Positions 948-54,159 of a DNA stretch of 64,000 nucleotides are shown piece after piece (position 1 is the stretch's first letter; every line of letters starts with the position of its first letter). The stretch lies in the sequence record NZ_CP097382.1. One strand, given 5' to 3'. Source of the DNA: a plasmid. Below the pieces are notes generated by a model, which saw only the letters and a program-made list of their open reading frames with translations, did not search any database and was not told the DNA's origin. The position numbers and the translations under genes are program-made.

Positions 948-1439
948 ATGGAAAAGTGGTATTTATTATATTGTAAACGTGACCAAGTTTTACGCGCGAT
1001 TGAGCACCTTGAGCGTCAAGGGGTAACTGTGCATAACCCGACCTACAAAACGGAAAAAATGGTGAGAAACCGCCGCAAGAAAGTGATGGAGCCGTTATTT
1101 CCCAATTATTTATTTGTGAAGTTTGATCATGAAGTTATCCACTTTTCAACAATCGGTTCAACACGCGGGGTGAACTACTTTGTGCGCTTTGGCCAGAACC
1201 CTGTGGTAGTGCCGAATGAAGTGATTGCGACACTGGTTGTACCTGATTTCGTTAAAGAGATGAGTGATAACCTGCCGCAAAAAGGGGATGAAGTTGTCAT
1301 TACAGACGGTATTTTTGCGGGGATCCAAGCTATTTATAACGAACCGGATGGGGAAGCACGTTCGGTATTACTTCTTAAAATCCTCAATAGAGACGTTCCC
1401 AAAGTTGTCGATAATCGTAGCTTTGAAACCATCAAATAG
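948..1439 (+). CDS. NusG/RfaH-family specialised transcription antiterminator (ActX/RfaH-like paralog)
   Basis: 163 aa. The N-terminus MEKWYLLYCKRDQVLRAIEHLERQGV...PLFPNYLFVKF matches the NGN domain of RfaH/NusG paralogs. The C-terminal region GDEVVITDGIFAGIQAIY is a KOW-like motif. The gene is embedded in the tra operon. Confidence 0.75.
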   Translation: MEKWYLLYCKRDQVLRAIEHLERQGVTVHNPTYKTEKMVRNRRKKVMEPLFPNYLFVKFDHEVIHFSTIGSTRGVNYFVRFGQNPVVVPNEVIATLVVPDFVKEMSDNLPQKGDEVVITDGIFAGIQAIYNEPDGEARSVLLLKILNRDVPKVVDNRSFETIK

Positions 1440-2522: not shown

Positions 2523-5234
2523 ATGAACGAAAAACCGTCCTTAATCGATAAGCTGCTTGCCCCGTTTCTCCCCAAGTCAAAAGACATTGTGTTTGATGAC
2601 GAGCCCGAACCGGTATCGTTGCAAGAAGCGGTATTCAAAAATTTATTTACCGCATGGCGAGAGCCGGATGGAAGTAAAGGGGCATCTGAAGCCTTGGAGA
2701 ATATGGATTACCCCTCCTTTTGCAGCCTTTTACCGTATCGCAACTACGATGCCAAATCCGGACTGTTTATCAATAAAACCACCATTGGTTTTGCCTTAGA
2801 GTGCACGCCCTTAGTGGGGGCCAATGACAAAATTGTCGATGCACTGGATTATTTTTTGCGTAATAAACTCCCACGCAAAATACCCTTAACGTTCATGTTA
2901 TTGGGGAGTAAGTGTATCAGCGAGCAGTTAGTCTATGGATTAAAAGACTTTGGGTGGCAAGGGGAAGAAGCGGAGAAGTTTAACCATATCACGCGCGCTT
3001 TCTACGAGCGCGGTGCTTTAGTGGGGTTGGATAACAAGCTCAATCTTCCGTTATCGTTACGCAATTACCGTTTGTTTGTGTGTTATGCCGAAGAGCATAA
3101 AAAAGCCGATGCGCTGACATTACAAAAAGTGAATCAAATTCTCAGTATTGTCATGAAGTCTTTGGCAGGTGCATCTTTGCATTGTGAACAAATGAATGAC
3201 AAAGGGTTACTGCAACTGGTACGTGAAATCAGCAACTTTCGGCACGACCAGATTGCGTTGCCAAGTAGCCACGTTGACCCCTATGAGTCACTCAATGACC
3301 AATGTGCTGACCGCTCTTTGACTCTTGAAATTCGTCCCGATGCCATTCATCAGTCGTTATCGATGGACAAGGGGCAAAAAAGTCAAACCCGTATCATGAA
3401 TTATATGTTGGAGAAAAACCCGACCCAGTTCGCCTTGTGGCAAACGGGCGATAACTTGAGTAATTTGCTTGACCCTGCATCCAGTGTGTCCTGCCCGTTT
3501 GCCATTACCATGACCGTGTACGTTGAAGATTTGGTCAAAACCCAAAACGAGGCGAAGAAAAAGTTTATTACCAATAACAGTCGGGCAAACTCCAAGTACA
3601 TCAATTGGGTGCCTGGAGTTAAGCGTAAAGCCGAAGAGTGGGGAGCGTTGCGTGAGGGACTCGATACCAATCAAATTGCACTCGCGCGTTACAGTTACGG
3701 TATCACTTTATTTTGCGAAGACGATGATGATAAAGCGCTGGAAGCGGAAATGGCGTTGATGAATACCTACACCACCAATCACTTGAAGCTGTGTCCACCG
3801 ACCTTTATGCAATTACGTAACTATTTGGCACTGTTCCCTTTTGTCATGCAAGAGGGGCTGTGGGGCGATATGGTTCGTTCAGGCGGCACACTCAGAGCGA
3901 AAGCCTTTAATGTCGCCAATTTATTACCCGTGGTGGCAGATAATCGGATCTGTCAAAAAGGCTTACCTATCCCGTCGTATCGGCACCAACTCTCCTTTCT
4001 CGATATTTTTGAGCGAGGTTCTGGTCTCGGTAACGACAACTTTAATGCGGCAGTATGCGGGACGTCAGGCAGTGGTAAATCGTTTCTCATGCAAGCGCTA
4101 ATTCGTCAAGTGCTTGATGCAGGCGGGTGGGCGTATGTCCTCGATATGGGGGATTCGTATAAAGAGCTGTGTCACAGCCTTGGGGGCGTCTATGTCGATG
4201 CGCGTGACCTTAAATTCAATCCGTTCGCGGGTGTCGTCGATATTAAAGAGGCCGCGGAAAGTATTCGTGACCTGCTCATCGTGTTGGCGAACCCTTCGGG
4301 CGATATGGATGATGTGTCTAAATCTATCCTACTCAATGCCGTTCAAGAGGTGTGGGAAGGAAAAGGGCCAAATGGACGTAAAGGAAATAAAGTCCTGATT
4401 GATGACGTTCATGATTACCTCGAAGCCGAAGTGAAAGCCGCTTATTTCGATCCGCAAAGTACGGTTCAAAATAAGATGCAAGAAATCATTGTGGCATTGA
4501 AAAAATACACCACCAAAGGGCTGTACGGAGAGTATTTTAACAGTGACAAACCGGCTCTGAATGAACAAGTCCGCTTTACCGTACTTGAAATGGGCGGGTT
4601 GCAAAATAAACCCGATCTGTTAGCCGCCGTCATGTTCTCGATGATGATTTTCATCCAGCAACGGATGTATTTAACGGCGCGCAGTATCAAAAAACTCGCG
4701 GCCATTGATGAAGGTTGGAAGCTACTGGATAACAAGAGTCGCTTTGTCGCCGACTTTATTGAAAGCGGTTATCGAACAGCCCGTAAATACGGGGGGTCTT
4801 ACATTACTATCTCGCAAGGGATTGATGATTTTGACGGCGATAGTGCCAGTACTGCCGCGAAAGCCGCGTGGAGTAATTCTTCCTTCAAAATTATCTTGCG
4901 TCAAAACATGGAAGCGTTCCGTAAATACAACCAAAAGAATCCCGACCAGTTCAATCCTGTTGAGCGTGCCATTATTGAAGGGTTCCCTGCGGCAGGGGAT
5001 GCACACTTTAGTGCCTTTATGCTGCGAATTGCGGGGCGCTCCTCATTCCATCGGTTGGTAACTGATCCGATTAGCCGGGCATTGTACTCAACGGATGGGG
5101 ATGACTTCCAATTTCGTGAAAATCTCATGGCGGAAGGACTGTCACAACAAGCGGCGTTATTGGCACTGGCTAAGCGCAAATTCCCACAAGAAATGGAGAC
5201 CTTATCCCAATGGCAGAGTCAAACACGACATTAG
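2523..5234 (+). CDS. traC: TraC, the VirB4-family ATPase of the F-type T4SS
   Basis: About 900 aa. The N-terminus is collinear with F TraC (…SLLPYRNYDAKSGLF…). A Walker A motif GTSGSGKS is present. The ATG at 2523 lies 1 nt after the traV stop. Confidence 0.9.
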   Translation: MNEKPSLIDKLLAPFLPKSKDIVFDDEPEPVSLQEAVFKNLFTAWREPDGSKGASEALENMDYPSFCSLLPYRNYDAKSGLFINKTTIGFALECTPLVGANDKIVDALDYFLRNKLPRKIPLTFMLLGSKCISEQLVYGLKDFGWQGEEAEKFNHITRAFYERGALVGLDNKLNLPLSLRNYRLFVCYAEEHKKADALTLQKVNQILSIVMKSLAGASLHCEQMNDKGLLQLVREISNFRHDQIALPSSHVDPYESLNDQCADRSLTLEIRPDAIHQSLSMDKGQKSQTRIMNYMLEKNPTQFALWQTGDNLSNLLDPASSVSCPFAITMTVYVEDLVKTQNEAKKKFITNNSRANSKYINWVPGVKRKAEEWGALREGLDTNQIALARYSYGITLFCEDDDDKALEAEMALMNTYTTNHLKLCPPTFMQLRNYLALFPFVMQEGLWGDMVRSGGTLRAKAFNVANLLPVVADNRICQKGLPIPSYRHQLSFLDIFERGSGLGNDNFNAAVCGTSGSGKSFLMQALIRQVLDAGGWAYVLDMGDSYKELCHSLGGVYVDARDLKFNPFAGVVDIKEAAESIRDLLIVLANPSGDMDDVSKSILLNAVQEVWEGKGPNGRKGNKVLIDDVHDYLEAEVKAAYFDPQSTVQNKMQEIIVALKKYTTKGLYGEYFNSDKPALNEQVRFTVLEMGGLQNKPDLLAAVMFSMMIFIQQRMYLTARSIKKLAAIDEGWKLLDNKSRFVADFIESGYRTARKYGGSYITISQGIDDFDGDSASTAAKAAWSNSSFKIILRQNMEAFRKYNQKNPDQFNPVERAIIEGFPAAGDAHFSAFMLRIAGRSSFHRLVTDPISRALYSTDGDDFQFRENLMAEGLSQQAALLALAKRKFPQEMETLSQWQSQTRH

Positions 5235-5635
5235 TCGACAAGGCAGTAAAAACCCCTGCTCTAGGCATGAGCCGTCGCCGCAAACAATGTTTAAAAGCCA
5301 TGAGCTTTTTTATGGTCATTGCCGTGGTGCTGAGTTTCAGTATTTCGGTGTTTGTGGTGCGCTGGCTTGCCCCCGTTACCGTCACTTTCGACATGGCGGG
5401 CACGGTTAACCAATATCAGCAGCAAATGGCCATGCAGTTTAACAGCGAAAACCCATTGAGCGAACAGCAAATTGCAGATGCCACTCACCGTTTTCAAATG
5501 GCGCTCAGTGACAGTTTATCCGAGTACCAACACACCCATCAGGCCCTGATTTTAGTCACGCCTGCGGTGGTGATGGGCGCGGAAGATATCACGGTCGATA
5601 TTCAAGCCGCGATTGCGGACAAAATGGCGCAATAA
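5210..5635 (+). CDS. trbI: TrbI inner-membrane protein
   Basis: 141 aa. APVTVTFDM…ALILVTPAVVMGAEDIT parallels F TrbI (APVTVAFNM…AVILVSPAVVQGAPDIT). It is positioned after traC. Confidence 0.75.
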   Translation: MAESNTTLVDKAVKTPALGMSRRRKQCLKAMSFFMVIAVVLSFSISVFVVRWLAPVTVTFDMAGTVNQYQQQMAMQFNSENPLSEQQIADATHRFQMALSDSLSEYQHTHQALILVTPAVVMGAEDITVDIQAAIADKMAQ

Positions 5636-5644
5636 GGAGGGAAA

Positions 5645-6277
5645 ATGAAGCGAATACGGCAGTCTACACTGGCAGTCTTGTTTTGTTTACCTTGTCTTGT
5701 TACCGCTAAAGATCTTGGTGTATGGGGGGATGTCTATCCCGTTCAAGAGCAAAGTATGTTGGACTTTATCCAAGGGCGGTTAAAACAAATGGAAGGGACG
5801 GGCGAAATCGCGCAGATGCAACAAGATTTTAAAGATCGCGTGATTGAAAACACGTTGCGCCCACCGCCAGTGGATTGGCTCAGTACGGATACCGAAGCAC
5901 ATACAGTGTGGTACGACCCGACATTTACGGTTCAAGGGGATTATGCCGACCACAATGGCGTGGTGTTTGCCCGACAGGGCGACAAAATTAACCCGCTGAG
6001 TCATGTGGCACTGGGGCAAACCCTGTACTTTTTAGATGCGGATGATCCGCGCCAAATCGCGTGGATGAACGCCCAGCAGCCTGCGACCTTGCGTTATAAA
6101 GTCATTTTAACCAATGGCAATATTAAAGAGGCCACGCAGGCACTGAATACGCGCGTGTTCTTTGACCAAGGGGGCAGTTTAAGCCGTCAGCTCGGGCTTC
6201 AGTACATTCCGGCGGTGGTGACGCAAGAGGGAGACAAACTCAAAATCGTTTCGGCGGCGATGCAGGAGGGGCGATGA
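5645..6277 (+). CDS. traW: TraW pilus assembly protein
   Basis: 210 aa, the same length as F TraW. It has a signal peptide and lies between trbI and traU. Confidence 0.75.
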   Translation: MKRIRQSTLAVLFCLPCLVTAKDLGVWGDVYPVQEQSMLDFIQGRLKQMEGTGEIAQMQQDFKDRVIENTLRPPPVDWLSTDTEAHTVWYDPTFTVQGDYADHNGVVFARQGDKINPLSHVALGQTLYFLDADDPRQIAWMNAQQPATLRYKVILTNGNIKEATQALNTRVFFDQGGSLSRQLGLQYIPAVVTQEGDKLKIVSAAMQEGR

Positions 6278-7269
6278 GAAAATTTACCCGTTGGTTATTG
6301 AGTGCCTGTGTACTGGGGTGTGTAACAGTAGCAACGCCAGCGAAAGCCGATGTGATGTGTGAAGGGAATTTTGTTAACCCGATCACCGATATTTGTTGGG
6401 ATTGCCTGTTTCCGATGACCATCGGTAATGTCCCCGTTTTCCCTGGCGTGGCACCGGATACAGAAAACCCCTCGATGCCGATCCAAATTTGCCCGATGGG
6501 GATTTTATACCGTATTGGCCTTGCCATTGGTTATTGGGAGCCCTTTGCCCTAACGGATGTGACCCGTTCACCGTATTGCATGGTGAATTTAGGCGGCTTT
6601 AACATCAACGTTGGTAAGATGGGCGGGGGCAAAGGCACGCAAAATGACCCCGCAACGCAAGGGGCGTTTTACCATGTGCATTGGTACAAATATCCACTGA
6701 CTTATTGGCTCAATATCATTACCTCGGCAGGCTGTTTAGAGCGCGGGGATATGGATATCGCTTATTTGTCAGAGCTAGACCCGTTGTGGAATGACAGCTC
6801 GTTGTCGTCGATTATTGCCCCTGAAGCCTTTGTGTTTGCCAATCCCATCGCGCAAGGGGCGTGCGCCGCCGATGCGATTGCCAGTATTGGCAATAAGCCG
6901 TTAAATGCGCTCTTTTGGTGTGCCGGTTCACAAGGCAGTATGTATCCGTTTACGGGGTATACGGGGAATGAATTTAGTCCGCAGGCTTCCTCGGTTCTTC
7001 TTTCTGAGCGCATGGCGTTTAAGTTGCATCGGCAAGGGTTGGTGATGAACAGCGTCGGGAAAAATCAGGATGTGTGTTACACCTATCCGTCCCCGATTAT
7101 CCCGAAAGACCGTTATCGTTATCAAATGGTGAACATGTATCCCGATACTGCACAGTGTCATCCTTTTGGTCGTTCCGTGATGCGCTGGCAAACAGGGCAT
7201 GCTTCACCCAACAGTCGTAAAAACTTCGGTTATCTCATCTGGCGTAAACGTAACTGCGTTTTCCTCTAA
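6274..7269 (+). CDS. traU: TraU pilus assembly / DNA transfer protein
   Basis: 331 aa, Cys-rich, with a signal peptide. The N-terminus CEGNFVNPITDICWDCLFPMTIG is characteristic of TraU. Its start overlaps the traW stop. Confidence 0.85.
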   Translation: MRKFTRWLLSACVLGCVTVATPAKADVMCEGNFVNPITDICWDCLFPMTIGNVPVFPGVAPDTENPSMPIQICPMGILYRIGLAIGYWEPFALTDVTRSPYCMVNLGGFNINVGKMGGGKGTQNDPATQGAFYHVHWYKYPLTYWLNIITSAGCLERGDMDIAYLSELDPLWNDSSLSSIIAPEAFVFANPIAQGACAADAIASIGNKPLNALFWCAGSQGSMYPFTGYTGNEFSPQASSVLLSERMAFKLHRQGLVMNSVGKNQDVCYTYPSPIIPKDRYRYQMVNMYPDTAQCHPFGRSVMRWQTGHASPNSRKNFGYLIWRKRNCVFL

Positions 7270-7284
7270 TACGAGGTCCTTTTT

Positions 7285-7905
7285 ATGAAATCCGTTTTCT
7301 TTTTATTCGCAAGCGTGCTGCTTGCGTCGACGAGTCATGCCTTAACGGATGACCAACAGTTTTTAGAACAGCTACGTGACCAAAGTGCGGCCTTGCGGGA
7401 ACACTCCTTGCCGCCGGATGGCTTTAAGCCACCGGAAATCTCGGCCAAGGATAAAGCCTGGATTGATAGCTTATTAGCCAAACAGCAGCACGCGCAGCAA
7501 CAAGTTGCCGATGCAGCTAAAGCACAAGCCGTGCAGGAAAGTCCCTTTGTTTACTTTGTGTCGTTTTCGATTCCTGAAGCGGGACTCAAACAGATGGTGC
7601 CGGAGGCGACACAGCTTGGTATCCCCACGTTGATTAATGGCCTGATTGACAATGACTTTCGTAAAACGGCCAGTGCCGTGTTTGAACTGACGAAAGACAG
7701 TGGCGAAGGGGGCGTGCAAATCGACCCAAAAACCTTTGCCCAATACGGCATTACACAAGTGCCCGCACTGGTTTTGCGCTGTGAGCACGGTTTTGATGTG
7801 ATGTACGGCAATATCCGTTTGAACTCAGCTATCGAGCGGGTTGCTAGCAGTGGCGATTGTCGTCAGGTTGCTCAAGATTGGTTGGCATCGAGGGCGCGGA
7901 AATGA
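7285..7905 (+). CDS. trbC: TrbC periplasmic pilus assembly protein
   Basis: 206 aa with a signal peptide. It sits between traU and traN, matching F-like order and size. Confidence 0.7.
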   Translation: MKSVFFLFASVLLASTSHALTDDQQFLEQLRDQSAALREHSLPPDGFKPPEISAKDKAWIDSLLAKQQHAQQQVADAAKAQAVQESPFVYFVSFSIPEAGLKQMVPEATQLGIPTLINGLIDNDFRKTASAVFELTKDSGEGGVQIDPKTFAQYGITQVPALVLRCEHGFDVMYGNIRLNSAIERVASSGDCRQVAQDWLASRARK

Positions 7906-28027: not shown

Positions 28028-28597
28028 ATGGAACGCAAAAAATTAACCTTAAAGCGGGCGACAACAGAAAACGTTGAAGAAAGTACAACGCCTGTTATTT
28101 CGCCTCGTCGTAAAAAAATGGTGGTTAATACACAGCGTAAAGCCAAAAAAACCGTCAAAACAACACCAACTCAACCCCTTAAAAAAGTGACCTCTCCGCC
28201 TGCGCAAAAACAGAAAGTGGTAGTCGTTCCGTTAGAAAAAAAAGTCGTTCCGCCGACGCCGCCAAAGCAACATCTACCATTAGAAGAGGCGATTGCCAAT
28301 ATTTCAGCCTATTGGCCACAACTCTTTCCCGATGGACAACTTCGACCGATGGCAGTGGGGACACGAGAGGCCTTACTTGCGGACAAAAAAGTCCGTGAAC
28401 TGCCTATTTCGACTAAAAAACTGAAACGCAGCCTCGCGGCCATTAGTCACAGTGTCAAATACCGCACCACGATTATGCCTGGTGCAGTACGCTATGATAA
28501 TGATGGTCAGCCTAACGGGGCTGTCACGGAATCGGATGTGGCCGATACGTTAAAACGCATTCAAAAACTGGTTAAACAACAATCACGACCCGCATGA
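28028..28597 (+). CDS. finO: FinO RNA chaperone (ProQ/FinO family), the fertility inhibition protein
   Basis: 189 aa with a Lys/Pro-rich N-terminus. …AYWPQLFPDGQLRPMAVGTREALLAD…KKLKRSLAAISHSVKYRTTIMPGAVRYDNDG… is collinear with F FinO (…[26 protein letters not shown]…KKLRRALKAITRSESYL…GACRYDTEG…). Confidence 0.85.
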   Translation: MERKKLTLKRATTENVEESTTPVISPRRKKMVVNTQRKAKKTVKTTPTQPLKKVTSPPAQKQKVVVVPLEKKVVPPTPPKQHLPLEEAIANISAYWPQLFPDGQLRPMAVGTREALLADKKVRELPISTKKLKRSLAAISHSVKYRTTIMPGAVRYDNDGQPNGAVTESDVADTLKRIQKLVKQQSRPA

Positions 28598-39472: not shown

Positions 39473-40006
39473 ATGATAAAAATAAATCTAGTTACAATAG
39501 CGGCTTGTTGTTTTTTAGCGAGTAGTTTAACTTGGGGTAATAATACAACTTCAGTTAATTATGATGGTACTCTAGTTAATCTGGCTTGCGTTATTGATGA
39601 TGAGACTCCTATTGAAGTTAATATGGGCTCCATAATCGATAAACAAATCTATTTACATGGTCACTCAGTTAATAAAAAATTTAATTTAATCTTAAAAGAT
39701 TGTGATCCTATGTTAGCTAATTCTATAGTAATAACACTTAATGGTAGTTCAGGAAATGTTACGCCTGATGGATACCTAAAATTTGATACAGGTAGTGAAG
39801 CAAAAGGTGCTGTGATAGGAATTGCGGATGATAAATTATCTCGTGTTCAGATTGGTAAGGAATTGTCACCTAGACTAACAGAATCAGGAACAATGAGTGT
39901 TCCTTTATATGCTTTCGTTCAAGGAACTCCTGAAGCTATACAAAATAATTCTATTACACTTGGTCAATTTACTGCGACATTATTTTACACTATCAATTTT
40001 GAATAA
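39473..40006 (+). CDS. Fimbrial minor subunit
   Basis: Signal peptide, …DGTLVNLACVIDD…, and a C-terminal …YTINFE. Confidence 0.6.
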   Translation: MIKINLVTIAACCFLASSLTWGNNTTSVNYDGTLVNLACVIDDETPIEVNMGSIIDKQIYLHGHSVNKKFNLILKDCDPMLANSIVITLNGSSGNVTPDGYLKFDTGSEAKGAVIGIADDKLSRVQIGKELSPRLTESGTMSVPLYAFVQGTPEAIQNNSITLGQFTATLFYTINFE

Positions 40007-40061
40007 ATCATATAGTGTTAGATAAATATTCCCAGCGATATGATTCACAATAGGTAGATAA

Positions 40062-40613
40062 ATGAATAAATATGAAGGTATCGTAAAAATGGAGAGAGCA
40101 TTAAAGCAATTCATCGGTGGAATTTGCATATTTTTTTTGGTTTCTCCAACTCAGGCTGTAGAGATTTCACCTGGTAGCAGGGGGACTTTGCCTCTTACTG
40201 TTAGTGTCACTGTGCAAGCCGTTACTTGTGATATTAGTGGTTCAGATAATAAGGATGATATAACTGTTGACTTTAAAACTATAACAAAGAAAGGAATTGA
40301 TAATGGCGATTATGAATTGTCTGTTCCAATAAAAATTACGTGTAGTAATAATACACCATCGTTAAGTTTGCAATTAACAGGCACACCAGCGAATTTTAAT
40401 AAAACATTATTAAAAGCTAATGAAATTTCAGCGTTAGGTTTTGAGTTTTATATCAATGACCAAAAATGGGCATTGAATAGTACATCTCCAAATTTTACAC
40501 TAACTTCGATCCCAGTGATAACGGTTAAACCTAAGCTAAGTGAGTACGCTACAAACTTAAATGGTGGAGAATTTACTAGTACTTCTGCTAGCTTGATATT
40601 AAATTATGAATAA
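40062..40613 (+). CDS. Fimbrial minor subunit
   Basis: Signal peptide (probable start at the MERALK Met, 40089), Cys pair, and a C-terminal …LILNYE. Confidence 0.55.
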   Translation: MNKYEGIVKMERALKQFIGGICIFFLVSPTQAVEISPGSRGTLPLTVSVTVQAVTCDISGSDNKDDITVDFKTITKKGIDNGDYELSVPIKITCSNNTPSLSLQLTGTPANFNKTLLKANEISALGFEFYINDQKWALNSTSPNFTLTSIPVITVKPKLSEYATNLNGGEFTSTSASLILNYE

Positions 40614-41048
40614 AGTATTTTTTTATAAAAATAACTAAAGAGATTATCTTTTCTATAATGTTAATTTTTATGTTTTATTTACTATTATGTTAAGTTACAG
40701 ATAAATACCAAATATTAAAAATTATGATTAATAAGTATAACAACAAAACTGGTTCATTTTGGAGGATTCAGACATATAGTAACGTATCCTTTCATTCTAC
40801 TCATGATTGGAGAGATTAATATCGTTTTACCATTATATGTTATATAGTGGTTTGAAGCGGATTTAGTATTGATGAATAAATGACAGCGCAGTAATTTAGC
40901 TGCTTATGGAAAGACGATATGGTGAAAAAACTCAATAAAATTAAAATAGTAAAATATTGGACACCAGTAGGCAGTCATAATCCTTCTTGGATATATTTAT
41001 ATGCTGATTTTATTGAAAAATCAGGTGAAAGTAAGGAATGTTATTATT

Positions 41049-41972
41049 ATGTTTAACTATGCCAAATATTTTTTGATTTTTGTGGGCTTAATTTTTTTTG
41101 TATCAAATGCAAACTCTGAAAATTTAAAACCAGTAGTGACAAGTTCAGTGTTAAGAGTAGCTCCACATTCTCCTGATCAGGTAATCCACACAATTTCTTG
41201 GTCTTCATTTAGTATTTCTGATGAAGAGGCGAATCGTATAATTTATTGTCCAGCAGTTATTTCTAATCTTTGCGGATGGGGATTTGTTTATAGGCAAACT
41301 TATATCCCAACAGGAAGAACTGCTACATGGGGATTTAGAGGCGGATATAATGGAATGGGGATTAATTCACTCTATACAGTAGGATTTAGAGATGGGCAAA
41401 CACTTGGACAAGCATATAGGGATTTTATCGCGACATTTGGTGCGAGTGGTACAGCTGCAATGATAAGGAATCATAATAACAGACTCGGTGATAATTATCG
41501 TTATGCTGGCTGTTTTGCTCTTTTAAATTCGCGAGATAATACTCTATTCGACCCGCCTAATAACCTGGAATGTTTAGACACTCCAATTGACCCCATACCT
41601 ATGTCATGTCAGATCACTGGCCCAACAGGTGGTGATACAGTAAATCTTGACCATGGAATAGTCAGTACTGGTCGATTGAATGGTAATCAAGCCTCAGCGA
41701 AGATAGGTGTTAAATGTACCGAAAATGCATCTGTCTCATTCAGTTTTACTGAGACAACATTACAATTGGGGACAAACTTATCATCAACCCTTTCGTTAAA
41801 ACGAAATGGTATGGATATACCTATCAGTGATTCACCAGGAAGTAATAATAGTCAAAAAATAGATAAAAATATATTAACTTATATTGATGTTATTTCTACA
41901 TTATCTGCAGCAGGAACGATTGCCCCCGATCGTTATACAGGAAGCTCCACATTAGTTGTAACATTAAACTAA
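41049..41972 (+). CDS. Fimbrial tip adhesin (two-domain)
   Basis: About 307 aa with a signal peptide. It is the last gene of the locus and has adhesin-like size. The C-terminal pilin-like half ends …LVVTLN. Confidence 0.55.
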   Translation: MFNYAKYFLIFVGLIFFVSNANSENLKPVVTSSVLRVAPHSPDQVIHTISWSSFSISDEEANRIIYCPAVISNLCGWGFVYRQTYIPTGRTATWGFRGGYNGMGINSLYTVGFRDGQTLGQAYRDFIATFGASGTAAMIRNHNNRLGDNYRYAGCFALLNSRDNTLFDPPNNLECLDTPIDPIPMSCQITGPTGGDTVNLDHGIVSTGRLNGNQASAKIGVKCTENASVSFSFTETTLQLGTNLSSTLSLKRNGMDIPISDSPGSNNSQKIDKNILTYIDVISTLSAAGTIAPDRYTGSSTLVVTLN

Positions 41973-42900: not shown

Positions 42901-44212
42901 TATCTATGGACTACCTCCGTTTTGCAAGTACTGAATCAGGTTTTAGGTTGTTGCTTACATCTATCCGGCATCAGAAATATCTGTGCCCAAATGGGTAATC
43001 CGCACACAATCGCCTCAACAACTGGACGGCCACGAAGGCCAATATAATAATCAGGTTCCGATCGTGCAGGTTTAACCTGTGACCATTTTTCAATACTTTG
43101 CAACTTTTAAAGGTATGCTATTACACTGCCAGTCTGTACTCGGTTTCATTGTGAAGAATTGACCAAATAATTCTGGCATTTTTATTGGCGACTGCAACGG
43201 TCGTTTTGTTAAATCCTCGTCGCTCTTTTAGCTGATTAACCCATTGATTTAAATAACCCTCATTATTATTTGCAGCCACTCTAACGACTGCCCTGGCTCC
43301 ATGAATAAATAAGGTTCGCAAATGCTTGTCGCCTTTTTTCGTCATATTCATCAGTACCTGCCTGTCACCACTCGAGTGCTGTCGTGGAACCAGACCAAGC
43401 CATGCGGCAAAGTGACGACCATTTTTAAATTCAGTTCCTTTGCCTATCGCGGCAACAACAGCTGTTGCTGTTTTAGGGCCAATGCCTTTAACTTTGGCAA
43501 TGCGCTGGCAGGCTTCTGATTGCCTGAACACAGCATCAATTTCTTTATCAAAAAAGCCTATGCGACGACCAAGATCGTTAAAGAGATCATAAAGTTCTGC
43601 AATCGTCCTGCGCATTCTAACGCTAAGACCATTTTCAGCATCTTCAAGAATAAGCGGAACAGCACGACGAACTCTTGAGACTGCCGAGCCGATTGTTATT
43701 CCCCGATCAAGCAGCAGTCCCCGGATTTGACAAACTGTCGCAGTGCGGTGATTAACAATACGCTGTCTTGCACGGTGCAGAGCCTGAATATCCTGCTGTT
43801 CAGGGCTTTTGGGTGGTACGAACTGCATTGTTGGCTGCATCAGAGCAATTGCGATAGCCTGTGCATCATTACCGTCATTTTTTTGCCCGCGGACAAAGGG
43901 TTTTACATACTGGGGACTGATCACTTTTACCTTATGTCCCAGTTTTTCGAACTCACGCTGCCAGTAAAATGCTCCCGTGGAGGCTTCCACACCAATCAGG
44001 CAGGCCGGAATATTCGCGATAGTCTGTAGTAACGTTTTACGATCAGTGCGTTTTTTATAAACCGGTTTACCCGCCTGATTTAATCCACAAAGCTGAAAAA
44101 CATTTTTAGCCAGATCAATACCGAGATAGATAACATTCATGATAATGCTCCTGCTGAGTATATTTTATTCAGTTAACCTCAGAGGGAGGAGGTAGTCCAT
44201 CCCATTAATTGG
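42901..44212 (-). mobile_element. IS110-family insertion sequence (1312 bp) nested inside IS3 orfA
   Basis: Its boundaries are inferred from the precise interruption of the IS3 orfA reading frame (…ATYY | NWKSKYGG…). It carries the DEDD transposase CDS 43121-44140(-). Noncoding ends of about 220 bp lie 3' of the CDS and about 70 bp lie 5' of it. Confidence 0.65.
43121..44140 (-). CDS. IS110-family transposase (DEDD RuvC-like plus C-terminal Tnp domain)
   Basis: 339 aa. The N-terminus MNVIYLGIDLAKNVFQL… is the hallmark of IS110/IS1111-family transposases. …KGIGPKTAT…AWLGLVPRQHSSGD… is the family's C-terminal motif. Confidence 0.85.
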   Translation of the reverse strand: MNVIYLGIDLAKNVFQLCGLNQAGKPVYKKRTDRKTLLQTIANIPACLIGVEASTGAFYWQREFEKLGHKVKVISPQYVKPFVRGQKNDGNDAQAIAIALMQPTMQFVPPKSPEQQDIQALHRARQRIVNHRTATVCQIRGLLLDRGITIGSAVSRVRRAVPLILEDAENGLSVRMRRTIAELYDLFNDLGRRIGFFDKEIDAVFRQSEACQRIAKVKGIGPKTATAVVAAIGKGTEFKNGRHFAAWLGLVPRQHSSGDRQVLMNMTKKGDKHLRTLFIHGARAVVRVAANNNEGYLNQWVNQLKERRGFNKTTVAVANKNARIIWSILHNETEYRLAV

Positions 44213-44352
44213 AAATCAAAGTATGGTGGCATGGAAGCGAATGATGTTAAACGATTAAAAGAGCTTGAAGATGAAAATGCGAAACTGAAAAAGCTCTTTG
44301 CGGAAGTTAGCCTTGAAAACCACGCGATGAAGGAGCTTTTCGCAAAAAAGGG

Positions 44353-45198
44353 TTGGTAGTGGCTGAAAAGAGATCCTGTGCTCAATCATTAAAAGAGGCA
44401 GGCTTATCAGTCATTAAGGCTTGTAAGCTAACGTCGTTGTCACGAGCCACGTTTTACCATCAGCAAATAGATTGGCGTAAAAAAGACCAAGTAGTGATCG
44501 ATGCCATACAATCTGTGTTAGCGAAATCACCACAATCGGGATTCTGGAAATGCTATTTCCGACTGAGATTTCAAGGCTATCCTTTTAATCATAAACGAGT
44601 TTATCGCGTTTATTGTCGATTAGGATTGAACCTGAAACGGCGGGTTAAAAAAGTGCTTCCGAAGCGTGAAAAAAGACCATTAGTGATAGAAAAAGTCCCG
44701 AATATTCAATGGGCATTGGATTTTATGCACGACAGTTTATATTGCGGTAATCGCTTCAGAACTCTCAACATTATTGATGAAGGAACGCGTGAATGCTTGG
44801 CGATTGAGGTTGATACGTCATTACCGGCTGAACGCGTCATCAGGGTGCTTGAACGTTTAAAAGCCGAAAGAGGGTTACCGAAACAGATCCGAGTCGATAA
44901 TGGCCCTGAACTCATTTCAGTTAACTTATTGAATTATTGTGAAGATAACCAAATTTTACTGTGCCATATTCAACCGGGAAAACCGCAGCAAAATGGGTTT
45001 ATCGAACGTTTTAATGGTTCGTTCCGTCGAGAGTTTTTAAATGCGTATTTATTTGAATCATTAAGCCAAGTGCGAGAATTAGCGTGGTTTTGGCTGCAAG
45101 ATTATAACCAAAATCGAACCCATGAAAGTTTAAATCACCTCCCACCGGAGGCCTATCGTCAACAGTTAGAAAACTCTAATTTAACGTGTCTCAATTAA
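44353..45198 (+). CDS. IS3-family OrfB (DDE integrase-core transposase)
   Basis: 281 aa. …WALDFMHD…IIDEGTRECL…DNGPE…HIQPGKPQQNGFIERFNGSFR… are the DDE/rve motifs. Confidence 0.85.
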   Translation: MVVAEKRSCAQSLKEAGLSVIKACKLTSLSRATFYHQQIDWRKKDQVVIDAIQSVLAKSPQSGFWKCYFRLRFQGYPFNHKRVYRVYCRLGLNLKRRVKKVLPKREKRPLVIEKVPNIQWALDFMHDSLYCGNRFRTLNIIDEGTRECLAIEVDTSLPAERVIRVLERLKAERGLPKQIRVDNGPELISVNLLNYCEDNQILLCHIQPGKPQQNGFIERFNGSFRREFLNAYLFESLSQVRELAWFWLQDYNQNRTHESLNHLPPEAYRQQLENSNLTCLN

Positions 45199-46100: not shown

Positions 46101-47546
46101 ATGGAATACAAGCTTAATAAGAATATCCCTATAGGAACTAATGCTACTGGACTACGAGAAGAATTCGATAGTATGGGAAAAGTAAATGTTCCCGCAGATC
46201 GCTATTGGGGTGCCCAAACACAACGCTCATTACAACATTTTAATATCGGTAATGACCTCATGCCAAAAGAGGTTTACCACGCCTACGGCTATGTAAAGAA
46301 AGCTTGTGCGTTAGTTAACTTTGCTGCTGGCAGATTACCCGATTGGAAAAAAGATGCCATTGTTATGGCTGCTGATGAGACTATCAGTGGTCAGCTTGAT
46401 GACCATTATCCTCTCTATGTATGGCAAACAGGCTCTGGTACGCAATCAAATATGAATGTCAATGAGGTACTTTCTAATCGAGCAATCCAATTATTAGGCG
46501 GTACATTAGGAACTCAATCACCTATAGGTCCTAATGATGATGTGAATATGGGGCAATCGTCAAATGACTCATTCCCAACTGCAATGCATATCGCTGCAAT
46601 TTTTGCGATTGATGAACAGTTAATTCCAAGCATTGAAAGTTTAATTCAAGTTATTGAAAAAAAAGCTGACTCATGGATGGCCGTGGTTAAAATTGGTCGC
46701 ACACACTTAGAAGATGCAGTTCCCCTCACCGTTGGCCAAGAGTGGCATGGATGGGCAGGTCAGCTCAAAGACGCGTTGGAAGACATTAAACGCAGTAAAT
46801 TAGACCTGTATAAACTTGCGATAGGTGGTACCGCGGTAGGTACGGGTTTAAACGCACCAAAAGGCTTTTCAAAAGATGTTGCTGAAAAAATTGCAGAATT
46901 AACACAAAAACCATTTGTTACAGCACCAAATAAATTTACTGCTCAAGGCTCTTTAGATGCATTAGTACGTGCTCATGCGGCTATTCGAGGACTTGCGGTT
47001 GCATTGATTAAAATAGCCAATGACATGCGTTGGCTAGCCTCCGGTCCTCGTTGTGGCTTAAGCGAATTGATTTTACCGGCAAATGAACCAGGTTCTTCAA
47101 TCATGCCAGGTAAGGTGAATCCAACACAGTGTGAAGCGATTGTCATGATTGGTATTCAAGTGATGGGAAATGACTCTGCAATATCTATTTCTGGTAGCCA
47201 AGGTAATTTTGAATTAAATGCAATGCGCCCTGTAATTATTAATAATTTATTACACTCGATTCGCATCATCTCTGATGGCTGCCATAAATTCAGAGAGTAT
47301 TCTGTTGAAGGCACTGAATTAAATAACACCAAAATTACTGAGTACGTCAATAATAGCGTGATGCTAGTCACTGCTCTCTCTCCAATTATCGGATATCAAA
47401 ATGCAGCTCATATCGCAGAAAATGCGATTGCAAAAAACATCACATTAAAAGAATCAGCTATTTCTTCAGGAAAAATAAGCGAAGAGGACTTTAACAAATA
47501 CGTCAATCCTATTGATATGACAGGTAATGGTTTATCTGGTGCTTAA
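46101..47546 (+). CDS. fumC: Class II fumarate hydratase
   Basis: 481 aa. VWQTGSGTQSNMNVNEVLSNRA and GSSIMPGKVNPTQCEA are the fumarase/aspartase-family signatures. It is collinear with E. coli FumC. Confidence 0.85.
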   Translation: MEYKLNKNIPIGTNATGLREEFDSMGKVNVPADRYWGAQTQRSLQHFNIGNDLMPKEVYHAYGYVKKACALVNFAAGRLPDWKKDAIVMAADETISGQLDDHYPLYVWQTGSGTQSNMNVNEVLSNRAIQLLGGTLGTQSPIGPNDDVNMGQSSNDSFPTAMHIAAIFAIDEQLIPSIESLIQVIEKKADSWMAVVKIGRTHLEDAVPLTVGQEWHGWAGQLKDALEDIKRSKLDLYKLAIGGTAVGTGLNAPKGFSKDVAEKIAELTQKPFVTAPNKFTAQGSLDALVRAHAAIRGLAVALIKIANDMRWLASGPRCGLSELILPANEPGSSIMPGKVNPTQCEAIVMIGIQVMGNDSAISISGSQGNFELNAMRPVIINNLLHSIRIISDGCHKFREYSVEGTELNNTKITEYVNNSVMLVTALSPIIGYQNAAHIAENAIAKNITLKESAISSGKISEEDFNKYVNPIDMTGNGLSGA

Positions 47547-47581
47547 TTTATTTTTAAATAATCCAATTATGAGGTTTTTAT

Positions 47582-49375
47582 ATGTATAACCGCCAAGCTG
47601 AAATCGTTGTTGAGAATAACATTCGAAAAATAAAAACTACAGCAAGAGGATATCAAGTATTACGAGATCCATCCTTAAATAAAGGAACCGCGTTTACTGA
47701 AGAAGAAAGAAAAGCACTGGACTTAAACGGTATTCTTCCTCCTGTTATTACAGAAGATATGGAAGTGCAATTAGACCGCTCTTATCGCGCTTATCGCGAA
47801 TGTCGTACAGACCTCGATAAACACATCTATATGTGGCGACTTCACGACAATAATGTCACATTATTCTACGCTTTATTACAGCGCCATATGTTAGAAATGT
47901 TACCTGTCGTATATGACCCTGTTGTTGGTGAAGCCATTGAAAAATATAGCGAAGTGATAACACGTCCAAGAGGTTTATTCTTAAGCATCAATGAGCCCGA
48001 ATTAATTGAAGAGAAATTACGTGCATTTGGTGCAGAAGGCAATGACATCCGACTGATTGTAACAACCGATGCAGAAGAAATTTTAGGTATTGGTGACTGG
48101 GGATCAAACGGTATCGATATTTCTGTTGGTAAATTAGCGGTATACACCGTTGCTGCCGGTGTTGATCCACACAGCGTCATTCCTGTTGTTCTGGATGTTG
48201 GTACAAACAATGAAAAACTATTAAACGACCCTTCATACGTTGGTAATAGACATGAACGTATTCAAGGCAAAGTATATGACGATTTTGTTGATGCCTACGT
48301 TAAAGCCGCAAGAAAACTTTTCCCAAATGCCGTCTTACACTGGGAAGATTTCGGTTCAACCAATGCACGCCGCATACTCGATAAATACCGTGCACAATTT
48401 GCCACTTTCAACGATGATGTACAAGGTACAGGAGCGATCGTACTTGCAGGTCTATTAAACGCCGTTAAATTGAGCAAAACATCGTGGACTGAGCAACGTG
48501 TTGTTGTATTTGGTGCAGGAACAGCAGGTTGTGGGATCGCTGACCAGATCCGTGACCAAATGATCCGCAGCGGACTTACGCGTGAAGAAGCAATTTCACG
48601 TATTTGGCTCGTTGATCTGCCAGGTCTGCTAACATCAGACATGACAGATGACTTACTGTACTTCCAAAAAGACTACGTTAAAGATATCCAAAGCGTAAGC
48701 AACTATCAAAGAAAAGTTGTTGATGTTTCTGTGGAAGCACAAACACGCTGGCCTGCAATGGCGAACATTCTGGCCAAAAACAATAAATCTAAAGGGATCA
48801 TTGACCTTGCCTCTGTCATTGAGCAAGTAAAACCCACCATCTTAATTGGTACATCTACCCAACCAGGCGCATTTACCGAAAGCATCGTGCGTAACATGGC
48901 AAGTAATGTTGAACATCCAATTATTTTCCCTTTATCGAATCCGACATTATTACACGAAGCAACACCACAACATTTAATCGAATGGACTGATGGTCGCGTA
49001 TTTGTTGCAACAGGCGCCCCTTTTGATGATGTCATTTATAAAGATGTTTGCTATAAGATTGGTCAAGCAAACAACGCAGCATTATATCCAGGGCTAGGCT
49101 TTGGGGCTATTGTATCGCAAGCTGAAAAAATTACTGACGAAATGATTTTCTCTGCGGTACAAGCGGTCGCAAGTCAAGCAACTCTAGGAGCGCAAGGCGC
49201 ATCATTATTGCCATCTAACGAAGATTTGCGTATTACATCCAGTATCGTGGCATTAGAAGTGATGAGAATGGCAAAATCTCAAGGCGTGGCAAAAGTGGAG
49301 CCAACGCTTTCAGAAGTGGAAGTTGTTAGAACTGCAGCATGGTGGCCAGTATACTTACCGGTAGAAGCTATTTAA
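47582..49375 (+). CDS. NAD(P)-dependent malic enzyme family protein (malate dehydrogenase, decarboxylating; a malolactic-enzyme type cannot be excluded)
   Basis: 597 aa. …LRDPSLNKGTAFTEEER…, …VVLDVGTNNEKLLNDPSYVG… and the NAD-binding motif GAGTAGCGIA are collinear with E. coli MaeA/SfcA. Confidence 0.8.
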   Translation: MYNRQAEIVVENNIRKIKTTARGYQVLRDPSLNKGTAFTEEERKALDLNGILPPVITEDMEVQLDRSYRAYRECRTDLDKHIYMWRLHDNNVTLFYALLQRHMLEMLPVVYDPVVGEAIEKYSEVITRPRGLFLSINEPELIEEKLRAFGAEGNDIRLIVTTDAEEILGIGDWGSNGIDISVGKLAVYTVAAGVDPHSVIPVVLDVGTNNEKLLNDPSYVGNRHERIQGKVYDDFVDAYVKAARKLFPNAVLHWEDFGSTNARRILDKYRAQFATFNDDVQGTGAIVLAGLLNAVKLSKTSWTEQRVVVFGAGTAGCGIADQIRDQMIRSGLTREEAISRIWLVDLPGLLTSDMTDDLLYFQKDYVKDIQSVSNYQRKVVDVSVEAQTRWPAMANILAKNNKSKGIIDLASVIEQVKPTILIGTSTQPGAFTESIVRNMASNVEHPIIFPLSNPTLLHEATPQHLIEWTDGRVFVATGAPFDDVIYKDVCYKIGQANNAALYPGLGFGAIVSQAEKITDEMIFSAVQAVASQATLGAQGASLLPSNEDLRITSSIVALEVMRMAKSQGVAKVEPTLSEVEVVRTAAWWPVYLPVEAI

Positions 49376-49859: not shown

Positions 49860-51023
49860 TTATAAATAACATAATTCAATGATAGAGCGTCCCTTGAATT
49901 TAATTCCTTTATTAACATTGAGCAAATAGGCTTTATTAATAAAGGCTTGGACTTTTATTATACCTTTTATATTGGAAAAAAGAACAGGTTGTAAGCTCCC
50001 TAATTTAGCCCAAGATGTAATTTTATTGGAGGAATTATTTGGTAATAGATCCCCATTTGTATGTTGCCAAACTACATAAGGATCTCCACAAGAAGAATTA
50101 CCTGAGATTGGCTGTACTTTTTCAGCCTTATTATTATCGATATATAAAGAATTTAAGTCTAACGCTACGGCATAACCACCAATAGGAATACCTTCTTGAG
50201 TATTACCTAGCCCCCCGGCCATCATAGAGTGGCTCAATAACTGAACAGGAGGGAGGCCATAACCGTTAATGCCTTCTTGTTTATTTGGAGCTAGTGACGG
50301 TTTCATTTGATTAGAAACTTGGATAGCTATGGCCGTTTTTCCTGAATCACATTGTACAGTAAAGTTAATGTTTTTTTCAGGTAATATTGTATAAGAATAG
50401 TCATTTAGCTCATATCTATTTATAACACCATAATCAATGGAGGTCGAATCAACAATAAGATTACATGCGGTGGTCATTTCTGAATAGCTAATAGCTAAAC
50501 TTGTAGTTCCACCTAGCGTTTGTAAAGGTATTTGGCTTCTAACAATAACACCTTTTTTACTCAATGAATTAATTTTTAAATCAACAACTAAATTGAAGGA
50601 AAATACTTTTCCTTTTTTATCCTGAGCGGGTTGAATACGTATGTTGGGGTGAACTTTAATATCACTTTGTGATGAGTTGATTCTATTTGAACTATTTAAT
50701 TCAATAGCATCTAATAAAATAGGTTTCCCATCGAGCATTGCATTATTTATATTTAAAATAGCTTCAGATGTATTATTTGAAAATGTATTACTACTTTTAG
50801 AAAACTCAAGGTATGGAGTAATTTCTTCACTACATTCTATTACTACTGGAACAATTCGGGTTCCTGCATATACTGCGCCATCTTGTTTTTTTGTATTAAA
50901 ATCAGCCAAGGTATCATAGTTAATCTCATTAGCTCCCAAGCGGATGTTACATGTTCCGTGGCTATCCGATGCGAATGCACTAAAAGATAGGAAAGTAAGT
51001 AGTCCTGCAATTAATTTTATCAT
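49860..51023 (-). CDS. Fimbrial tip adhesin-like protein (locus 2)
   Basis: 387 aa with a signal peptide. It is the last gene after the usher and has adhesin size. Confidence 0.5.
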   Translation of the reverse strand: MIKLIAGLLTFLSFSAFASDSHGTCNIRLGANEINYDTLADFNTKKQDGAVYAGTRIVPVVIECSEEITPYLEFSKSSNTFSNNTSEAILNINNAMLDGKPILLDAIELNSSNRINSSQSDIKVHPNIRIQPAQDKKGKVFSFNLVVDLKINSLSKKGVIVRSQIPLQTLGGTTSLAISYSEMTTACNLIVDSTSIDYGVINRYELNDYSYTILPEKNINFTVQCDSGKTAIAIQVSNQMKPSLAPNKQEGINGYGLPPVQLLSHSMMAGGLGNTQEGIPIGGYAVALDLNSLYIDNNKAEKVQPISGNSSCGDPYVVWQHTNGDLLPNNSSNKITSWAKLGSLQPVLFSNIKGIIKVQAFINKAYLLNVNKGIKFKGRSIIELCYL

Positions 51024-51024
51024 T

Positions 51025-53400: not shown

Positions 53401-54100
53401 TTTGCTGGTTATTTATCTTTATAGTGTATTTTTGAGTGGTTGAATATCCCCACTGAGTAAACGGTTGTATCGTGACTTCATCGATTAGTGTGGGAAGGTG
53501 TTGAGTTGTCGTTAACTCTATAGATTGATTAGGCAAAATATAATTGGATGGCAAGATCCACTGAATATTTCCAGGCAAACTCACAACACTATTGCTTAAC
53601 CTGACGATATAAGGACTAGGGTTGGTTGCGATTAATACGTTTTTTTCATACTTCCACTTTAACAACTCCCAAGGCGTATCATTTTCTGGTAGATTTTTAG
53701 GTTTTATAATAAGAGGAAGGTTTTGGCGAATAGTAAACTTAACCTGATCGGCATCGGGATTTGCTTGAGGTGGAATCCCTTCAAAAATAACTCTCATCAA
53801 TACTTCATGTTTTAACTCTGAATTACTAGTGAGCATAAAGCGGATTAATTGTTTAGCTTTAGGCTCAACCCGGATAAGTTGCGGGGTCGCAATAATTAGA
53901 TCTTGATATTCAGGATCGACATTTACTAATTCTGTTGTTAATAGGACAGGATAGTTATCTGTATTAGTCACTACTATCTCACCATCTTGACTTTTTTCAT
54001 TAACAATAGCAACGGATGTTGCAGGCAGTATACCTGAAGCGAATGATAGAAGAGGGGTTAATAATGAGCCTATTAGTAATAAGTATGTTTTTATTTTCAT
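53393..54100 (-). CDS. Periplasmic fimbrial chaperone (locus 2)
   Basis: 235 aa with a signal peptide and a PapD-like N-terminal domain (…VAIVNEKSQDGEIVVTNTDNYPVLL…). Confidence 0.75.
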   Translation of the reverse strand: MKIKTYLLLIGSLLTPLLSFASGILPATSVAIVNEKSQDGEIVVTNTDNYPVLLTTELVNVDPEYQDLIIATPQLIRVEPKAKQLIRFMLTSNSELKHEVLMRVIFEGIPPQANPDADQVKFTIRQNLPLIIKPKNLPENDTPWELLKWKYEKNVLIATNPSPYIVRLSNSVVSLPGNIQWILPSNYILPNQSIELTTTQHLPTLIDEVTIQPFTQWGYSTTQKYTIKINNQQND

Positions 54101-54159
54101 TTTAGCGGTATCATTTAAATAAGGTAACTAAATTAATTTAACTTAGTTACCTCTAAAAT

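Follow-up and report, generated by a model that had tools for sequence, protein, structure and literature searches.

Specialised paralogs of NusG, encoded in or next to the long operons that they make processive, have been described in several systems, including TraB of the IncI1 plasmid R64, UpxY, LoaP and TaA (PMC11880322, PMC7593976, PMC7819879). The tra operon of the F plasmid depends on RfaH (also known as SfrB) of the host (PMC7593976), while PrfaH (or ActX) of IncX plasmids is plasmid-encoded and co-transcribed with the type IV secretion system (T4SS) genes that it activates (PMC11880322). A 2025 study of the IncX system found PrfaH to be essential for transfer and to act via an ops-like site that follows the promoter of its own gene; the study also counted annotated nusG-family genes on 3212 plasmids, of which 10% were IncFII, and presents R64 TraB as a homolog required for transfer (PMC11880322). 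In addition, rfaH genes were reported to occur on plasmids, with plasmid RfaH forming a separate branch (Wang et al., 2020; PMC7593976), and the same year saw the proposal that NusG paralogs reside in tra operons (PMC7593976). Here, we describe an rfaH gene located at positions 948 to 1439 (+ strand) of a 64-kb stretch of plasmid DNA (record NZ_CP097382.1; this whole stretch is hereafter called the window), inside the F-like tra operon of a conjugative Providencia plasmid. It is likely, with a probability that we put at roughly 0.78, that the plasmid thereby supplies a genuine, autoinhibited and ops-dependent RfaH for its own tra transcript, in an arrangement that would create positive feedback.

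Comparison with described systems

The plasmid protein has in common with the chromosomal RfaH of Escherichia coli and other Enterobacterales its family, its domain layout, its matches to the RfaH equivalog hidden Markov models (HMMs), the residues for ops contact and autoinhibition, and a predicted helical C-terminal domain. The type of target is also the same as for chromosomal RfaH acting on F, namely an F-type tra operon with a GGCGGTAG core. However, chromosomal rfaH is a stand-alone gene adjoining ubiD and tatD, whereas plasmid rfaH lies inside its candidate target operon. The chromosomal proteins carry an HTTT motif and K42, in contrast to HFST and K42R in the plasmid protein, which belongs to a separate clade that is about 58-62% identical to host RfaH. 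The site of ops differs as well, the traV-traR spacer in F and the traY-traA spacer in the Providencia plasmids. The traB-traV interval of F contains traP, trbD and trbG. It has no NusG-like gene, and the absence of such a gene there had been stated in the first-pass annotation of the window, which was made from the sequence alone.

IncX PrfaH likewise has an ops-like site upstream of its own gene, a self-reinforcing layout, and combines an NGN domain with a two-helix C-terminal domain (PDB 9ik0; PMC11880322). The two proteins are nonetheless only distantly related, since the match of plasmid RfaH to 9ik0 (E 7.1e-11) covers the NGN domain only (residues 3-100), with 24% identity in a structural alignment. 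Furthermore, prfaH opens a VirB-type (MPF_T) operon and its ops-like sequence is plasmid-specific, whereas Providencia rfaH is internal to an MPF_F operon and the core found there is the canonical enterobacterial ops. Assignment of the plasmid protein to the ActX/PrfaH group was rejected, both for its distant sequence and for its position inside an MPF_F operon. It also scores below the cut-offs of the UpxY (67 bits, cut-off 100) and LoaP (33 bits, cut-off 125) models, and the recruitment signals of these paralogs are given in the literature as different or unknown; R64 TraB is likened here by description only.

A similar organisation is present in two conjugative MOBF/MPF_F plasmids, pPrAq2 (Pectobacteriaceae, IncFII; 7001-7540 of locus L010) and pTMTA97592 (Phytobacter, IncFIB/FIC; 7001-7513 of locus L011), where a gene named rfaH by the annotation pipeline PGAP directly follows traB, in the same slot ahead of traV. 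Their RfaHs are 39-40% identical to the Providencia plasmid protein, i.e., more distant from it than chromosomal RfaH, and show an insertion of 3-9 residues around residues 40-48; both loci lack traY and the small open reading frame (ORF) that precedes rfaH in the Providencia plasmids. A canonical ops was not clearly found in the leaders of these two loci, pPrAq2 having AGCGGTAGCTTTG inside the annotated 5' end of traA and the Phytobacter plasmid GCGGAAGC at this place. The existence of very different RfaH lineages in one and the same traB-adjacent slot would mean either that capture has happened repeatedly or that an RfaH of long standing in tra evolves fast.

The arrangement is real but already recognised, and its general principle has been published (PMC7593976, PMC11880322). 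What appears to be added by the Providencia plasmids is an orthodox RfaH rather than a divergent paralog, a canonical ops core at a fixed position of the leader as its putative target, and a gene located in the middle of the operon. No paper linking Providencia plasmids with rfaH was found in the literature searched.

Identity of the plasmid protein

Positions 948-1439 form an intact and uninterrupted ATG-to-TAG ORF of 163 codons plus the stop codon, with a GC content of about 43%, like that of the plasmid backbone. The encoded protein of 163 amino acids (aa) consists of an NGN domain and an RfaH-type C-terminal domain. The NGN domain is recognised by Pfam PF02357 (E 2.3e-19, 70.1 bits for a cut-off of 22.2, residues 3-95), and both RfaH equivalog models of NCBIfam are passed, NF006534 with 226.5 bits (cut-off 124, residues 1-161) and TIGR01955 with 175.9 bits (cut-off 144.5). 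The best sequence match among solved structures is E. coli RfaH (PDB 2oug; E 2.1e-52, residues 1-160), which is 54% identical to the plasmid protein in a MAFFT alignment. In the records of related plasmids, PGAP labels the gene 'rfaH: transcription/translation regulatory transformer protein RfaH'.

The first-pass annotation had placed a NusG/RfaH paralog between traB and traV, and this is borne out by the intact ORF, by the NGN and equivalog matches and by the identification of both flanking genes. It had also proposed a search for a KOW domain next to NGN; Pfam KOW gave no match in the protein at E<=0.01, though residues 108-160 align to the isolated C-terminal domain of E. coli RfaH (PDB 2lcl; E 2.3e-13), and the isolated RfaH C-terminal domains 2lcl and 6tf4 both align within residues 102-160. 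Judged by these comparisons, the product is RfaH and not a housekeeping NusG. The latter identity was rejected given a score of 35.7 bits with the NusG model TIGR00922, far from its cut-off of 135.7, the lack of a Pfam KOW match and the predicted helical C-terminal domain.

Functional residues and predicted fold

Residue numbering of plasmid RfaH coincides with that of E. coli RfaH up to about residue 100, and 17 sequences of the plasmid clade were compared with 23 sampled chromosomal RfaHs. Plasmid RfaH has all the ops-contact positions, namely K10, Q13, R16, H20, R23, Q24, T72 and R73; K10, R23 and Q24 are invariant across the clade, while H20 and R73 are each missing from just one of its 17 members. 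H20, R23 and Q24 we take to be ops contacts in the RfaH-ops structure. For K10 and R73, roles in RfaH have been published (PMC7593976). Similarly, no variation is seen within this clade at the autoinhibition positions E48, I93 and R138. E48 and R138 presumably form the salt bridge of the autoinhibition interface. Position 130 is occupied by Y instead of the F130 of E. coli, and this is also the case in 15 of the 23 chromosomal RfaHs and in most of those encoded by Morganellaceae chromosomes; E48, I93 and F130 all have described roles in autoinhibition (PMC7593976).

Three substitutions, K42R, T66F and T67S, distinguish the two groups, being near-fixed within each and different between them. 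Thus, the HTTT motif (residues 65-68) is kept in 23/23 chromosomal RfaHs, while in the plasmid clade T67S is universal (17/17), T66F is found in 14/17, and H65 is retained. Residues H65, T66 and T67 make contact with the beta gate loop and are important for antipausing, and a role of the HTT(T) motif was reportedly addressed by Sevostyanova and colleagues in 2011 (cited in PMC7593976).

An AlphaFold2 model built on a 40-sequence alignment has an NGN domain with a predicted local distance difference test (pLDDT) score of about 90, followed by a C-terminal two-helix hairpin (helices 121-131 and 135-147) instead of a beta-barrel KOW domain. The top structural matches of this model in Foldseek are autoinhibited RfaHs, i.e., 5OND (template modelling score 0.90, root-mean-square deviation 1.7 Å), 8PIB and 2OUG. 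Plasmid RfaH is hence predicted to be built as an autoinhibited RfaH, with an alpha-helical C-terminal hairpin packed on the NGN domain.

Conservation, selection and origin

The first 6 kb of the window are 98.7% identical to two 48.9-kb plasmids of Providencia stuartii, and they share 87-95% identity with numerous other plasmids from Providencia that belong to a single replicon cluster; all 54 matching PLSDB records are from Providencia. Plasmid RfaH is conserved at 64-100% identity in these 54 records and in metagenomic contigs, and the gene product of NZ_CP008919.1 is 100% identical to the protein encoded at 948-1439. Nine loci that span the same range of RfaH identity were compared (L001-L004, L007-L009, L013 and L014), where L013 is pRB151-NDM of P. 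rettgeri and L014 a plasmid with an identical RfaH protein. The order traB, small ORF (62-73 aa), rfaH, variable slot and traV is kept in all nine. The ratio of nonsynonymous to synonymous substitution rates (dN/dS) of rfaH is 0.06-0.17, with synonymous sites saturated in most pairs; in the sole pair that is far from saturation, L002 versus L003, it is 0.07. Plasmid rfaH is under purifying selection. The possibility of a chance ORF is ruled out by these dN/dS values and by the protein identity across plasmid records.

Proteins from a plasmid context (P0001-P0018) form a tight group of 64-98% identity, followed after a gap, at about 53-62%, by the chromosomal RfaHs of Providencia, Moellerella, Xenorhabdus, Photorhabdus, Pectobacterium, Pantoea and others. 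Providencia chromosomes carry an RfaH of their own, e.g., P0041 and P0048 on contigs of 3.9-4.4 Mb, and these are the host proteins to which the value of about 58-62% given above refers. In neighbour-joining trees, plasmid RfaHs are monophyletic and fall outside all sampled chromosomal Enterobacterales RfaHs; these trees carry no bootstrap support and are midpoint- or outgroup-rooted, so that the order of deep branches is not fixed by them. Recent capture from a Providencia chromosome was rejected, because the plasmid clade is monophyletic and not nested among the chromosomal Providencia RfaHs; plasmid rfaH is therefore not a recent copy of the host gene.

In a 169-kb plasmid of P. alcalifaciens (L004, 7001-7476), rfaH is recovered by tblastn in two pieces and is broken and unannotated, and traK, traB and traC are likewise fragmented, which suggests that rfaH decays together with the tra operon. 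More generally, tblastn found NusG/RfaH-like genes in 534 PLSDB records. Two 'plasmid' matches were discarded: a Salmonella match (H40; L005, NZ_LN868946.1) that is a chromosomal ubiD-rfaH-tatD locus mislabelled as plasmid, and a Proteus match (H39, NZ_OL790811.1) in a 4.08-Mb record that is really chromosomal sequence.

The ops element in the tra leader

As the window begins within traB, the tra leader lies upstream of position 1. In 9/9 relative loci, an ops core, (G/T/A)GCGGTAGC, is found on the sense strand of the AT-rich traY-traA spacer. The expectation of the first-pass annotation that the leader would contain an ops-like element thus holds for the relatives; the window itself includes neither leader nor ops. 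In the seven loci that were fully scanned (126.8 kb in total), GCGGTAGC occurs once per locus, on the + strand, 88-101 nucleotides (nt) past the traY stop codon, and ops is placed in the same way in L013 and L014. L007 and L009 carry the perfect 12-mer GGCGGTAGCGTG, identical to the ops of F. The element reads GGCGGTAGCTTT in L001, L003, L004 and L014, AGCGGTAGCTTT in L013, GGCGGTAGCGCA in L002 and TGCGGTAGCTAT in L008. In a four-sequence alignment of the spacer, GGCGGTAGC stands out as a fully invariant 9-nt block, mean identity being otherwise 59%.

In the complete 48.9-kb relative, the leader ops is the sole sense-strand match on the plasmid and lies about 3.8 kb upstream of rfaH and about 28.9 kb upstream of the end of traI, in good agreement with the tra transcript of about 30 kb that had been proposed. 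In the F plasmid, the traV-traR spacer, located some 5.5 kb into the operon, contains a perfect ops, GGCGGTAGCGTG (L006 9323-9334, corresponding to 73322-73333 of the record). This fits the published dependence of F on host RfaH (PMC7593976), also invoked in the first-pass annotation. The F ops sits in the variable traB-traC neighbourhood, where the Providencia plasmids have rfaH, and the Providencia ops precedes traA.

Proposed mechanism and alternative explanations

From family membership, the contact and autoinhibition residues, the predicted fold, synteny, purifying selection and the ops in the leaders of relatives, we infer binding, antitermination and feedback, as well as an ops upstream of this window. 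Transcription would begin upstream of traY, and RNA polymerase would then expose the ops (G)GCGGTAGC on the non-template strand some 90-100 nt past traY. Plasmid RfaH would bind this element via its conserved K10, H20, R23, Q24 and R73, and binding would free the helical C-terminal domain; RfaH would remain on the polymerase, with NusG excluded. As a result, pausing and Rho-dependent termination could be suppressed over about 29 kb, from traA to traI, including the AT-rich cargo between rfaH and traV. With rfaH encoded about 3.8 kb past its own ops, expression would be self-reinforcing, basal read-through leading to RfaH and hence to more read-through, and the plasmid would become independent of the amount or type of host RfaH. 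The earlier suggestion that the plasmid has its own antiterminator for the tra operon is supported by these sequence comparisons.

Several points weigh against this scheme. The ops target is extrapolated from nine relatives, the leader being outside the window, and no ops is present in the 64-kb window itself, whether it is looked for with GGCGGTAGNNTG at <=1 mismatch, with exact GGCGGTAG or with GCGGTAGY. In the relatives, ops positions 10-12 vary (with CTTT, CGCA and CTAT as endings), G12 of the E. coli pause consensus is absent in most loci, G1 is T or A in two, and Rfam JUMPstart has no match in the leader of a relative, where the lone match, to a miRNA family, is spurious. On the protein side, HTTT is replaced by HFST in plasmid RfaH and 14/17 clade members, and by HTST in the other three. 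The C-terminal helices of the AlphaFold2 model are only moderately confident (block-mean pLDDT 65-78), and RfaH structures were in the AlphaFold2 training set, a possible source of bias towards a helical C-terminal domain. Lastly, MOB-suite types 51/54 of the Providencia plasmids as non-mobilizable, though TraI and TraD are intact in the window. This typing is probably an artefact of database sensitivity, given the apparently complete F-type T4SS, TraD and full-length TraI in the window and L001.

The necessity of a plasmid copy is also put in question by a host RfaH with the same contact residues that would already be present. The first-pass annotation had left it open whether the plasmid protein replaces or supplements the host factor. 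Since Providencia chromosomes encode an RfaH with the same contact residues, plasmid RfaH most plausibly supplements it in the native host, via dosage or feedback, and does not replace it; it would become indispensable only where the host has little or no compatible RfaH. A bolder version, which seems to us rather unlikely, sees plasmid RfaH as an autocatalytic switch at the level of elongation that would make distal tra expression and transfer competence bistable, with HFST and K42R tuning the interaction with polymerase so that the protein outcompetes or differs from host RfaH and allows read-through of the AT-rich cargo.

The same agreement of ops-contact residues with those of chromosomal RfaHs makes recognition of host ops sites plausible, and plasmid RfaH could then act mainly in trans on other ops operons (host lipopolysaccharide, capsule or toxin operons, or the fimbrial cargo), remodelling the donor surface and using tra as a convenient expression site. 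E. coli RfaH does control several unlinked surface and virulence operons (PMC7593976, PMC7819879) and the plasmid carries chaperone-usher fimbrial operons. However, the stretch that is devoid of GGCGGTAG and GCGGTAGY includes both fimbrial clusters, the only sense-strand ops of the complete 48.9-kb relative is the one in the tra leader, and both the close association of rfaH with traB in different hosts and cargo sets and its joint decay with tra in L004 favour tra as the selected target; we regard a main role in trans as unlikely. Candidate ops sites in the plasmid cargo were rejected, since the + strand GCGGTAG 7-mers at 34684, 46833 and 52539 lack the flanking bases; all three lie in large ORFs, namely those for the ushers and the lyase. 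As a by-product, plasmid RfaH may act in trans on ops operons of the host or the cargo, and this would be compatible with an RfaH that serves tra.

Two other explanations concern the value and the activity of the plasmid copy. If the plasmid ops recruited host RfaH, as happens with F, plasmid rfaH would be a redundant passenger that adds nothing essential, and indeed F manages with host RfaH alone, Providencia chromosomes encode the protein, and the two copies do not differ in their contact residues. Yet a neutral passenger would be lost, whereas the plasmid clade is old, as judged from synonymous saturation, monophyletic and constrained (dN/dS 0.06-0.17), and the position of rfaH is fixed in all loci while the adjoining slot turns over freely, which makes redundancy very unlikely. 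The least probable of the explanations considered is that of an RfaH derivative whose activity has been changed via HFST, either towards ops-independent recruitment like that of NusG or into a competitor that limits host RfaH or NusG. K42R, T66F and T67S do fall in or near the HTTT motif, but three clade members keep T66 (HTST), and both the autoinhibition residues with the predicted helical C-terminal domain and the canonical ops in the leader of relatives have been retained; autoinhibition and a conserved ops would be pointless for an ops-independent factor.

If plasmid RfaH is, as we favour, an ops-dependent factor for its own operon, tra expression would be independent of host RfaH supply, which could help explain both transfer and the tolerance of foreign cargo in the operon. 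The F-like plasmids of Providencia include clinical resistance plasmids such as pRB151-NDM, whose backbone is in common with the window. They also offer a natural comparison system, with a plasmid RfaH, a host RfaH that has the same DNA contacts and a single ops target, suited to the study of competition between RfaH paralogs, of positive feedback at the level of elongation and of the role of the HTT motif. The value of the locus is confirmatory and comparative, not conceptual.

Neighbouring genes in the tra operon

rfaH occupies the seventh or eighth position in an MPF_F operon, whose genes are co-oriented from traB onward in the window. The 3' part of traB (1-688, +), of the F-type and TrbI/VirB10-like, matches NF010289 with 316.6 bits (profile positions 235-434) and Pfam TrbI with E 5e-21. 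It is followed by the small ORF (723-941, +), which encodes 64 aa from an ATG at 747 (747-941) and whose stop codon is 6 nt ahead of the rfaH ATG. This ORF is directly 5' of rfaH in every locus; a 195-nt version is annotated by PGAP in L001, L002, L004 and L014, and equivalents of 62-73 aa exist in L007-L009. Its product has no Pfam or NCBIfam match, but the alignment displays a common core, PAV..WD..LFLAIYxGLSxWVxQIL, and with this hydrophobic core it is presumably a membrane protein. Equivalence to TrbD of F was rejected (13% identity, with no similarity in the alignment).

Downstream of rfaH, the variable slot contains an AT-rich ORF of 90 aa (1571-1843, +; about 31% GC); in L002, L003, L007, L008 and L013, it is filled by unrelated genes over 0.3-8 kb, with about 8 kb in L007. 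traV (1967-2521, +), for the F-type T4SS lipoprotein, is recognised by Pfam TraV (E 5.7e-17) and TIGR02747 (79.7 bits, cut-off 44.75). The remainder of the operon (2523-25976, +) comprises traC, trbI, traW, traU, trbC, traN, traF, trbB, a ribbon-helix-helix (RHH)/RelE-type module, traH, traG, traD and traI, an order that agrees with the PGAP annotation of L001 (98.7% identical). Pfam assignments in this part include TraG_N, TraD (TrwB_AAD_bind) and TraI (TrwC relaxase and helicase), and TraI is intact, with 1710 aa and its end at 25976. The co-oriented stretch from traC to traI is the presumed beneficiary of the RfaH-modified RNA polymerase. Between trbB and traH, 11491-12100 encodes an RHH protein, and the matching region of L001 is annotated as an RHH protein and a RelE/ParE-family toxin.

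Other features of the leader and of the plasmid

About 25 nt past ops (L001 16418-16474), the leader of the relatives contains a conserved putative 12-bp stem, CG(C/T)TTTATTTCT ... (G)GAATAAAGCG, whose arms correspond to columns 37-48 and 130-141 of alignment A4. The arms are near-invariant in seven loci, around a loop of about 20 to about 90 nt that is variable in sequence; RNAalifold recovers the stem downstream of ops, with no compensatory changes. It could be a stabiliser of traA mRNA, a processing site or an attenuator. On the minus strand, at L001 16484-16499, a conserved palindrome GAGCTAATTAGCTC followed by CTTTATTCC resembles a terminator hairpin and might serve to terminate an antisense RNA to the traA leader. 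Promoter and terminator scans gave no excess over shuffled expectation, and an Rfam scan of the window yielded no gathering-level matches. L008 has two tandem traA-like genes (4829-5188 and 5375-5737), the first of which shows clear pilin-like similarity to L001 traA, while the second has no ops but is preceded by a duplicate of the leader stem element.

After tra, the plasmid carries an IncFII-like repA, a ProQ/FinO gene, two chaperone-usher fimbrial clusters, insertion sequences (IS) and metabolic genes; the non-tra part of the window is 98% identical to pRB151-NDM of P. rettgeri over about 15.7 kb. The ProQ/FinO-family protein is encoded at 28028-28597. The first fimbrial cluster (32380-41972, +), of MR/P-like type, encodes a fimbrial subunit, an usher of 847 aa and an adhesin with an MrpH_C domain, and the second (49860-54939, -) includes a 791-aa usher. 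Further plasmid cargo, at 46101-49375, comprises genes for a lyase of the fumarase/aspartase family (481 aa) and for a malic enzyme (597 aa), flanked by transposase genes of the IS110 and IS3 families at 43121-45198.

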